Assembly: GCA_041288095.1 (NCBI GenBank) | Contig: JBGGMJ010000092.1 | Span: 57 to 64,056 of the forward strand | Direction: 5' to 3' | Origin: Myxococcota bacterium | GTDB taxonomy: Bacteria > Myxococcota > XYA12-FULL-58-9 > JALHOP01 | DNA: 64,000 nucleotides | In this document: positions 21,615 through 22,637 of the stretch, one piece after another | Layout of the letters: every line of letters begins with the position of its first letter | Numbering within the stretch: position 1 is the first letter of the stretch | Notes under the pieces: generated by a model | What the model was told of the DNA's origin: nothing | What the model saw: only the letters and a program-made list of their open reading frames with translations | Database searches by the model: none | Made by a program: the position numbers and the translations under genes

Positions 21615-22637
21615 TCAGGCGGCGTCGTTGGTGACCGGGCTGTGAAAGAGCATCTGCATGTCGCGCCAGCGGGGCTCGATGGCGCCCTGCTTGGAGAGCT
21701 CACGAATGCGCATCAAGACCGAGTCCTGAAGGCGCTGCAGCATCTCCGGCGAGAGCTCTTCGATTTCGCCAGCCTTTTCCATGTAGGTGAAGAAGAGCTG
21801 ACCGGCATCGCGTGGCAAACGCTGGCGGAAACCTTCGCGGAACGCGTCGTCCTCGATGAGCGACGCCTTGGCCATGCGCCACAGACCCGCCTTCTGGAAG
21901 AACTCTTCGCTATCCGTGAAGTTGACGACGACCCGCGACAGGAAGCGCTGCGCGTTCTTGATGTCGGGGACGTCGATGAGCGAGGCGCTGCGCACCGCCA
22001 GGATGAGCTCCTCGGCTTTGTCGCGCGGCAAGCGGCGGCAGAGCTCGGCGAGCGCCATCTTGCCGACGGCGACGAAGGCTTGACCGAGCTCGATGAGCCC
22101 GAGATCGCGCATCAAGCGGAAGAGGTCGGTCTTCTCGAGCTGCACGACGTCGCGGTAGGCGAAGCCCTTCGGCGACGGCTCGGGCATCTCGTGGAAGCGC
22201 GACTCGAAGATCTGGCGCACCGCTTCGACCAGCTCCTGCGGCACTGCTTTGATCTCGTTCTTTGGCGGTAGCTTTTTGCGGATGCCGGGCGGCAAGCGCT
22301 TGAGCACCGAGCGCACGGTCGGTGGCGGCAAGGTGATGAGCACACAGGCAACGACTCGGGCGCTCTCGCCACGCAAGCCGTGCAAGATCCACGACGGGTC
22401 GACCTTCTCGACGCCGCGTAGTCCGCGAAAAGCGATGAGCTGCTTGAGCTGCTGCACCATGAACGGCACGCGCTTCTCCGACGGCAGCGCCAGGAGTGCG
22501 TCGGCCTTCTGCTGGACGCGCGCACGCTGCTCCGTCGGCAGGTGTCGGAACACCGCGGCCTCTTCGCTGCCCGCCATCAACGTGGTGAGCAGGAGCATCG
22601 TCTCGCGCGAATCGAGCGGCTCGAAGAATGGATGCAT
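21615..22637 (-). CDS. FliG-like protein (flagellar rotor/switch protein homologue in a non-flagellar locus)
   Basis: At 340 aa it is FliG-sized. [27 protein letters not shown] aligns to E. coli FliG [53 protein letters not shown] aligns to [67 protein letters not shown] aligns to RSIQRLLQEVDSESLLIALKGAEQPLREKFLRNMSQRAADIL. It lies directly after the FliF-related sctJ. Confidence 0.6.
   Translation of the reverse strand: [340 protein letters not shown]

Follow-up and report, generated by a model that had tools for sequence, protein, structure and literature searches.

The 64,000-nucleotide stretch of DNA analysed here, from a Myxococcota bacterium (contig JBGGMJ010000092.1) and referred to below as the window, carries a T3SS (type III secretion system) gene cluster. 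The gene that directly follows sctJ in this cluster codes for a protein of the FliG superfamily, diverged and independent of a stator. Its place in the superfamily is as good as certain: sequence profiles and their comparison with other profiles, the structure predicted for the protein and the order of the genes all support it. FliG is the textbook case of a part exclusive to flagella. The gene described here is a core structural gene of the needle-less T3SS of Myxococcota, where it fills the fliG/sctK slot between sctJ and sctL, and its product is a remodelled, stator-less relative of FliG, not a canonical FliG.

The window DNA is G+C-rich, and positions 21615-22637 form a single minus-strand open reading frame (ORF) of 340 amino acids (aa). 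The product is identical to the protein ACAI38_10470 of an NCBI metagenome-assembled genome (MAG), where it is labelled 'hypothetical protein' [Myxococcota bacterium]. A preliminary description, made from the letters of the DNA, had placed a 340-aa FliG homologue directly after sctJ; this position is borne out, with a gap of 29 bp between the sctJ stop codon and the start of the FliG-like gene. The gene and the domains of its product are as follows.

21615..22637, minus strand: FliG-like gene, 340 aa, ORF with an ATG start
22422..22637, minus strand: N-terminal four-helix domain, residues 1-72, equivalent to the first half of FliG_N, with a conserved MHPFFxPL start
22182..22400, minus strand: FliG_M (ARM_M), residues 80-152, with E91-S-A93-R94...K126 in place of EHPQ...R
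21912..22172, minus strand: homologue of FliG_C (the torque-helix domain), residues 156-242, with an MFxF-like F159-x-Y161 hinge
21618..21911, minus strand: further C-terminal domain, C' (residues 243-340), which duplicates the FliG_C-like domain in tandem

On the window protein by itself, the Pfam model FliG_M (PF14841) scores 28.5 bits at residues 81-152 (gathering cut-off 25, E 1.8e-6). FliG_C reaches 18.3 bits, below its cut-off of 23.3, with a match that falls on C' (residues 262-321), and FliG_N is likewise below threshold and is positioned on the M region. A search of the PDB with the single sequence places FliG as its two best matches, both non-significant. When a family profile of 60 homologues (alignment A1) is used, the PDB chains below E 1 are FliG chains alone, at E 7.4e-7 to 1.5e-3. 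The profile alignment consists of one stretch on the M domain and a second, gap-free stretch that pairs residues 156-246 with the FliG C-terminal bundle from the MFxF hinge onwards.

Profile-profile comparison by hhalign, using a more diverse alignment (A2), matches the family to E. coli FliG with a probability of 91% and E 1e-6. The match is collinear over the N, M and C domains, pairing residues 19-60, 70-128 and 157-237 with E. coli FliG 14-56, 100-165 and 233-312, respectively. The preliminary description had proposed three matches to E. coli FliG by eye (N-terminal, middle and C-terminal), and all three are recovered here in the same register. Identity to E. coli FliG is about 13%. An AlphaFold2 model built with the alignment has a predicted local distance difference test score (pLDDT) of 90.4 and a predicted template modelling score (pTM) of 0.75, and the 13 top matches of this model in a Foldseek search of the PDB are all FliG (E 3.5e-4, probability 1.0). 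For single domains, the template modelling score (TM-score) is 0.69, with a root-mean-square deviation of 2.5 Å, to the FliG_M chain 4fq0_C and 0.53 to the FliG_C chain 1qc7. Over the whole chain the TM-scores are low, as FliG has several domains and is flexible.

The signal is stronger in the relatives. Among 60 diverse family members, Pfam detects FliG_C in 49/60 (best E 5e-16), FliG_M in 49/60 (best E 2.5e-11) and FliG_N in 17/60, and the relatives exceed the FliG_C cut-off at the region equivalent to residues ~158-242. A profile of the distant Myxococcaceae-type subfamily alone finds FliG as its sole significant PDB match (E 2.5e-4). The same survey also returns MgtE_N in 40/60 members (best E 3e-7), which raises the reading that the product is a generic MgtE_N/ARM helical-repeat protein, alike to FliG at the superfamily level and with no structural role in the T3SS (e.g., a regulator or chaperone). 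The sub-threshold FliG_N and FliG_C scores of the window protein fit this reading, as does the lack of a significant structural match for its C-terminal half alone. However, the FliG models always score above MgtE_N within the family, the window protein has no MgtE_N match at E<=1, and the PDB profile search yields FliG and no MgtE structure at E<=10. CBS and transmembrane domains are absent from the FliG-like protein. The collinear match extends over three FliG domains with their ExP and MFxF-like motifs, the place of the gene between sctJ and sctL is invariant in 20/22 of the related T3SS loci inspected, and the SctQ protein of the system co-retains the GGxG loop of FliM. A generic repeat protein is thus very unlikely. 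The preliminary description had named two outcomes that would refute its FliG assignment, the lack of a significant FliG-domain match and a different fold such as generic MgtE-N/ARM repeats, and neither is what the searches return.

The domain map shows where the protein has departed from FliG (Pfam FliG_N/FliG_M/FliG_C; TIGR00207; PDB 3HJL, 1LKV, 4FHR, 8UMD). It shares with FliG the superfamily, the N-M-C order and the ARM_M fold, together with the ExP of EHPQR, the MFxF-like hinge, the slot between the ring gene and fliH/sctL, and a partner SctQ that has the FliM GGxG motif. It differs in having no ARM_C, no second half of FliG_N and no stator charges, in its duplicated C domain, and in its ring partner, a SctJ whose tail differs from the one in FliF; stator and axial genes were not found nearby. 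The FliG equivalog model TIGR00207 stays far from its cut-off (12.6 bits against 226.7).

In the N-terminal domain, just residues 19-60 align and the second half of FliG_N is without a counterpart, while the MHPFFxPL start motif is kept in all close homologues. In the M domain, the ExP core of EHPQR is widely held across the 60 diverse members (E91 in 58/60, P93 in 49/60), and the window protein has an alanine at position 93. Residue K126 is K or R in 60/60 of the close family, and one alignment sets it at R160 of FliG. ARM_C and its adjoining linker (helix_MC), some 45-50 residues at E. coli ~187-232, have no counterpart, and a short linker connects the last helix of the M domain to the hinge, which across the family reads F159-x-F/Y161. 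The FliG_C region aligns without gaps to the FliG_C of T. maritima and H. pylori and to E. coli 233-312. The C and C' domains match each other by hhalign (probability 95%, E 2e-8), and an AlphaFold2 model of residues 153-340 (C-C') forms a compact single unit with pLDDT 90.4 and pTM 0.87.

The charged residues of the E. coli FliG torque helix that contact MotA (K264, R281, D288, D289 and R297) correspond to V189, D206, L213, A214 and D222, and these positions are variable or hydrophobic in the family. Thus 0/5 charges are kept, and the conservation of these residues, raised in the preliminary description, fails. It is strongly supported that the protein is not a rotor, since the torque-helix charges are lost and no stator was found.

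The family is broad. An exhaustive profile search yields 674 representative clusters at E<=1e-3, 273 of them at E<=1e-10. The matches in GTDB genomes are metagenome-assembled Myxococcota in 16/17 cases, some of them labelled "Deltaproteobacteria" or "Bdellovibrionales". The weakest genome match (L017, 25% identity) was rejected as a non-flagellar case: it is an ordinary fliE-fliF-fliG-fliH-fliI operon, and it is left out of the counts of related T3SS loci. In 15/16 GTDB loci, the order sctI-sctJ-X-sctL-sctN-sctO-sctP-sctQ-fliO-sctRST is seen as far as the contigs extend, with X the FliG-like gene; L009 is a 2.3-kb fragment that carries the FliG-like gene alone. Twenty-two related T3SS loci were inspected, and 20 of them have the run sctI-sctJ-X-sctL-sctN; the exceptions are L009 and L019/L020, a pair counted as one locus. 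On the metagenome contigs of this pair, genes for a 339-aa SctJ-like protein and a 332-aa FliG-like protein (JGI name 'FliG') are followed by mltA and not by sctL/sctN, and the pair may be an orphan ring-adaptor module.

The same slot is filled by more distant members (E ~1e-25 to 1e-39), many of which have a long Pro-rich extension at the C-terminus. Their loci match the published "Myxo" T3SS, with a TPR chaperone, sigma-70, sctI, sctJ, X, sctL, sctN, O, P, Q, fliO and sctRSTU; examples are L018, L021 (a Myxococcaceae MAG), L022/L023 and L029 (a 6.1-Mb contig), the last with a protein in the same 90%-identity cluster as a Myxococcaceae MAG protein. In P0214, P0232, P0235 and P0249, members of the Myxococcaceae type from loci such as L021, Pro/Arg-rich extensions of 100-400 aa lie past the FliG-like core and are probably disordered; the window protein has none. 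Against three orthologues (L001-L003), the ratio of nonsynonymous to synonymous substitution rates (dN/dS) is 0.03-0.08 at dS ~0.6, and the FliG-like gene is under strong purifying selection.

The host secretion system is encoded on the same strand, from the ring genes to the export gate. Its components are listed here with the evidence for each.

23635..24126, minus strand: sctI-like inner-rod gene upstream of sctJ, by a weak T3SS_basalb_I match and conserved position
22667..23545, minus strand: sctJ, inner-membrane ring lipoprotein, 292 aa (Pfam YscJ_FliF, TIGR02544)
22670..22765, minus strand: cytoplasmic C-terminal tail of SctJ, ~32 aa, RLRTVRGRLLRLQNEIAKARRKP..., which may be the helix on which the FliG-like N domain docks
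18178..19032, minus strand: sctL/fliH, ATPase stator (Pfam FliH E 4e-25, T3SS_SCTL; synteny)
16805..18148, minus strand: sctN/fliI ATPase (Pfam; NCBIfam SctN 601 against FliI 593 bits)
9982..10476, minus strand: sctO/fliJ (Pfam, TIGR02473), within the 8612..10476 block
8612..9457, minus strand: sctP/fliK-like gene (Pfam), in the same block, with a GNAT gene between the two
5385..6638, minus strand: sctQ, with a FliM-like N and middle part and a FliN-like C-terminal domain (Pfam, TIGR02551)
6270..6281, minus strand: GGNG (GGxG) loop of SctQ, inside IDRLLGGNG (motif comparison)
2829..5385, minus strand: export-gate genes fliO-sctR-sctS-sctT (Pfam FliO, FliP, Bac_export_1; NCBIfam)
4795..5385, minus strand: fliO (Pfam/NCBIfam)
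within 3975..5057, minus strand: sctR (Pfam/NCBIfam)
3674..3952, minus strand: sctS (Pfam/NCBIfam)
2829..3650, minus strand: sctT (Pfam/NCBIfam)

The sctJ product carries a lipobox as well as a C-terminal transmembrane helix; it matches Pfam YscJ_FliF at E 1e-21 and scores 139.6 bits on the SctJ model TIGR02544 against 41.8 on FliF. SctQ matches Pfam FliM (E 5e-13) and FliMN_C (E 3e-20) and scores 101.8 bits on TIGR02551 and 80.6 bits on fliM. The sctO/sctP pair matches Pfam YscO-like (E 2e-28), FliJ and Flg_hook, with 48.2 bits on the FliJ model TIGR02473. Orthologues of the sctI-like gene in L018, L021, L022 and L029 match T3SS_needle_F. On NCBIfam, the core proteins score near-equally on the injectisome and flagellar models, as for the ATPase in the list, for SctS (87 bits) against FliQ (96 bits) and for SctT (138 bits) against FliR (149 bits). 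FliO is encoded in this non-flagellar system.

The genes are ordered as in E. coli fliF-G-H-I-J-K and fliL-M-N-O-P-Q-R and as in yscI-J-K-L, the FliG-like gene being placed between the ring gene and fliH/sctL, with a FliM-type sctQ elsewhere in the same cluster. Such collinearity with fliF-G-H-I-J-K...M/N-O-P-Q-R, together with fliO, the FliM-like SctQ and the near-equal model scores, would also be expected if the cluster were a flagellar export operon and the product the true rotor FliG of a flagellar motor that is cryptic or unusual. This is extremely improbable. The TIGR00207 score and the loss of all torque-helix charges oppose it, the ring has, in place of FliF, a 292-aa lipoprotein of the SctJ type, and neither MotAB nor FlgB/C/E nor FliE was found among the window ORFs scanned. 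MotAB, rod, hook, secretin and needle genes were not found in those ORFs or in the flanks (±10 kb) of the related loci. Searches by tblastn with FliE and FliF gave matches limited to the flagellar locus L017, besides a weak similarity of FliF to the sctJ genes. Furthermore, the Myxococcaceae cluster of the same type is the published non-flagellar 'Myxo' T3SS (PMC3459982).

The host machine is a needle-less, flagellum-like 'Myxo-type' T3SS and not a classical injectisome. The preliminary description had spoken of a non-flagellar T3SS, and the gene content (a SctJ lipoprotein in place of FliF; no rod, hook or MotAB genes found) agrees with this, with the correction that the machine is of the needle-less type. 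The 'Myxo' T3SS, also T3SS*, is the same kind of locus (sigma-70, sctI, sctJ, sctL, sctN, O, P, Q, fliO, sctRST(U)) without secretin or needle, and in L021, L022 and L029 members of the family fill its sctJ-sctL gap. The window differs in that it comes from an uncultured clade with the most FliG-like protein and in that sctU and sctV are not adjacent. With SctU, SctV, SctD, SctC and SctF as tblastn queries, no match was obtained in the window or within ±10 kb of the 16 MAG loci L001-L016. For sctD in particular, there is no tblastn match to YscD in the window or the related loci and no Pfam match to FHA in the scanned ORFs, and a divergent or distant copy is possible.

 Abby and Rocha (2012) stated that Myxo systems "lack ... 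FliEG ... and MotAB" and listed the absence of FliG among the features that mark the basal Myxococcales systems as no longer flagella (PMC3459982). Component lists of the T3SS* of M. xanthus give SctD, J, I, Q, RSTUV, N and L, with neither FliG nor SctK (PMC10433427, PMC12075869). A 2025 preprint reported FliO, a 'flagellum-only' part, in the Myxococcota vT3SS and left FliG unmentioned (PMC12248157). In the literature searched, no published description of a FliG-like gene in a Myxococcota T3SS was found. The related loci with the FliG-like gene include the Myxococcaceae "Myxo-type" loci that have been published as lacking FliG.

The function most in keeping with this setting is that of a non-rotating adaptor between SctJ and SctQ, as the preliminary description had suggested, in which the tail of SctJ would bind the N domain and the M domain would bind the GGxG loop of SctQ. 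We consider this role probable, because both sides of the FliG_M-FliM_M interface are kept, the SctJ tail is conserved and no sctD was found nearby. The contacts themselves, and any ring that the protein may form, we infer from conserved motifs and synteny.

In flagella, the GGxG loop of FliM contacts the EHPQR motif of FliG_M (structures 4FHR, 3SOH, 4FQ0). The sctQ gene is located ~15 kb downstream of the FliG-like gene in the same cluster, and its IDRLLGGNG sequence is kept in the SctQ of 9/9 related T3SS loci that contain sctQ. The E. coli FliM equivalent is VDNLFGGDG, and the GGxG motif is absent from YscQ and Spa33. At the other end of the proposed chain, the cytoplasmic tail of SctJ measures ~32 aa, against ~10 aa in YscJ and MxiJ. 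It is near-invariant across L001-L015, and SctJ overall is ~40-55% identical in the more distant L004-L015. In Ralstonia HrcJ, the long and basic tail (AVRTRLDALRERIASRMP) bears a loose resemblance to the tail RLRTVRGRLLRLQNEIAKARRKP.

In the proposed arrangement, the short FliG_N-like domain would dock on the long, near-invariant tail of SctJ. FliG_M, through its ExP core and basic residue, would bind the GGxG loop in the FliM-like middle domain of SctQ, as in the flagellar FliG_M-FliM_M pair. This contact could suspend the SctQ(FliM/FliN)-SctL-SctN sorting and ATPase assembly beneath the export gate. The FliG_C-like domain, duplicated and devoid of the stator-contact charges, would form the compact C-C' module, such that the protein anchors and generates no torque. 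Candidate functions of C-C' are self-association in place of ARM_M-ARM_C stacking, or a contact with SctV or SctL.

Several observations weigh against this arrangement. The EHPQR motif is only partly retained (H to S, Q to R), and the equivalent of R160 varies with the alignment. The tail of SctJ is unlike the C-terminal FliG-binding motif of FliF, and the FliG_N-like domain that would receive it is truncated. The SctJ tails of the Myxococcaceae type are short and not conserved, so the SctJ-tail contact may not be general. Flagellar FliG uses ARM_C for ring polymerisation, and a FliG-style ring is not assured here because ARM_C is absent. In a Foldseek search with the C-C' half alone, FliG is on top at a non-significant best E of 0.06. 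Finally, sctU and sctV were not found in the window by tblastn.

The slot of the FliG-like gene is also that of sctK. It is identical to the position of yscK, mxiK and hrpB4 (yscJ-K-L, mxiJ-K-N, hrcJ-hrpB4-hrcL), as it is to the fliG position in fliF-G-H. The product could be the SctK of this system, bridging the FHA domain of SctD to SctQ, with SctK in general being a shrunken FliG. A review of 2014 set 'FliG (?)' against SctK (PMC4045390), and a preprint (10.1101/2025.03.14.643159) describes a chlamydial SctK-like protein as structurally similar to Pfam FliG, YscK, OrgA_MxiK and HrpB4. The SctK proteins (YscK, MxiK/OrgA, HrpB4, PscK) have in common with the window protein the sctI-sctJ-[K]-sctL position, an all-helical make-up and a presumed role as linker from ring to SctQ. 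A YscK profile (11 sequences) aligns by hhalign to 114 collinear columns of the family on the C-C' region, at a non-significant probability of 15%.

Further observations weigh against the SctK reading. Single YscK, MxiK and HrpB4 sequences give no hhalign signal against the family (MxiK and HrpB4 0.1%). The Pfam models for YscK, OrgA_MxiK, HrpB4 and the LEE SctK match 0/60 family members at E<=1, and SctK structures are not among the top 50 Foldseek PDB matches of either the full model or the C-C' model. SctK proteins have ~175-210 aa, the FliG-like protein being ~130 aa longer, and they dock on SctD, which was not detected in the window or the related flanks. No significant likeness in sequence, profile or fold was detected. 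The positional equivalence is exact and homology to SctK is a hypothesis, unproven; that the product is a SctK in this sense is possible, though doubtful.

A link between the two may still be considered in evolutionary terms. It is tentatively proposed, at odds that we do not put high, that the Myxococcota T3SS is a living intermediate which keeps the chain of ring protein, FliG and FliM/FliN, and that the FliG-like family is an ancestor-like form of SctK. If this is true, the SctK of injectisomes would be a radically shortened FliG of which the C-C' module survived. The SctD(FHA)-SctK link would have replaced the link of ring tail and FliG_N only after the Myxo lineage split off. The published absence of FliG from Myxo systems would be overturned, and SctK, the last 'orphan' protein of the sorting platform, would gain a flagellar homologue. 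The question 'SctK = FliG?' is now testable through an intermediate sequence family.

The diverged FliG copy, encoded at the place of SctK in a non-motile machine, suggests that these systems keep the flagellar mode of attaching the cytoplasmic ring. A conserved, stator-less relative of FliG in the sctK slot, together with a SctQ that has the FliM loop, indicates that torque generation and the FliG adaptor were lost in separate steps during the transition from flagellum to injectisome. The protein is also a candidate anchor for the sorting platform in needle-less T3SS that lack SctD, including relatives of the predation-linked T3SS* of Myxococcus. An annotation could also be given to several hundred entries that databases currently label 'hypothetical protein'.

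A further FliG-derived protein has been described in a non-flagellated bacterium with a T3SS, the chlamydial FliF-FliG_M fusion, for which a contact with SctQ has been proposed (Bergeron 2016, PMC4768692). In Chlamydiaceae, a single FliG_M is carried on a truncated FliF, away from the injectisome genes. In contrast, the window encodes a separate protein of three to four domains inside the T3SS operon, beside a SctJ-type gene.

The wider neighbourhood of the gene shows several insertions. Along the minus strand, the order is the RND efflux operon, the sctI-like gene, sctJ, the FliG-like gene, a 634-aa ORF, sctL/fliH and sctN, followed by several non-T3SS ORFs, sctO/fliJ, GNAT, the sctP/fliK-like gene, kup, sctQ, fliO, sctR, sctS and sctT. 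The additional genes are the following.

35132..36016, minus strand: sigma-70 gene
24415..36016 region, minus strand: RND efflux operon together with the sigma-70 gene
32221..33504, minus strand: HlyD gene of the RND efflux operon
26043..32224, minus strand: two AcrB genes of the RND efflux operon
24415..25902, minus strand: OEP gene of the RND efflux operon
19642..21546, minus strand: 634-aa ORF that separates sctL from the FliG-like gene and carries the motif HELGH (HExxH) in its C-terminal part
14711..16732, minus strand: 673-aa ORF
11284..13623, minus strand: DUF4781 protein
10514..11284, minus strand: HD_4 protein
9467..9985, minus strand: GNAT acetyltransferase
6657..8561, minus strand: Kup K+ transporter

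Searches of Pfam, NCBIfam and the PDB gave no match for the 634-aa ORF, and it is unmatched in every related locus; in L001-L003, merely 0.4-0.5 kb separates the FliG-like gene from sctL. It is outside the conserved T3SS core and possibly encodes an effector specific to the strain or a metalloprotease cargo. Non-T3SS genes interrupt the operon at 6657-16732 (minus strand), and the compact relatives L004, L006 and L015 are without them.

At the export gate, the mechanically called sctR ORF (360 aa) shares ~260 bp with fliO and has a FliP domain that starts no earlier than residue 150. The true start of sctR is probably an internal codon. After sctT there is a gene for a 779-aa NHL-repeat protein (544-3650 region) and no sctU or sctV; loci of the Myxococcaceae type have sctU at this point.

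At the opposite end of the cluster, the RND efflux operon separates the sigma-70 gene from sctI. In L018, L021, L022 and L029, a sigma-70 gene is found immediately 5′ of sctI. This suggests a dedicated T3SS sigma factor that an insertion would have displaced in the window.

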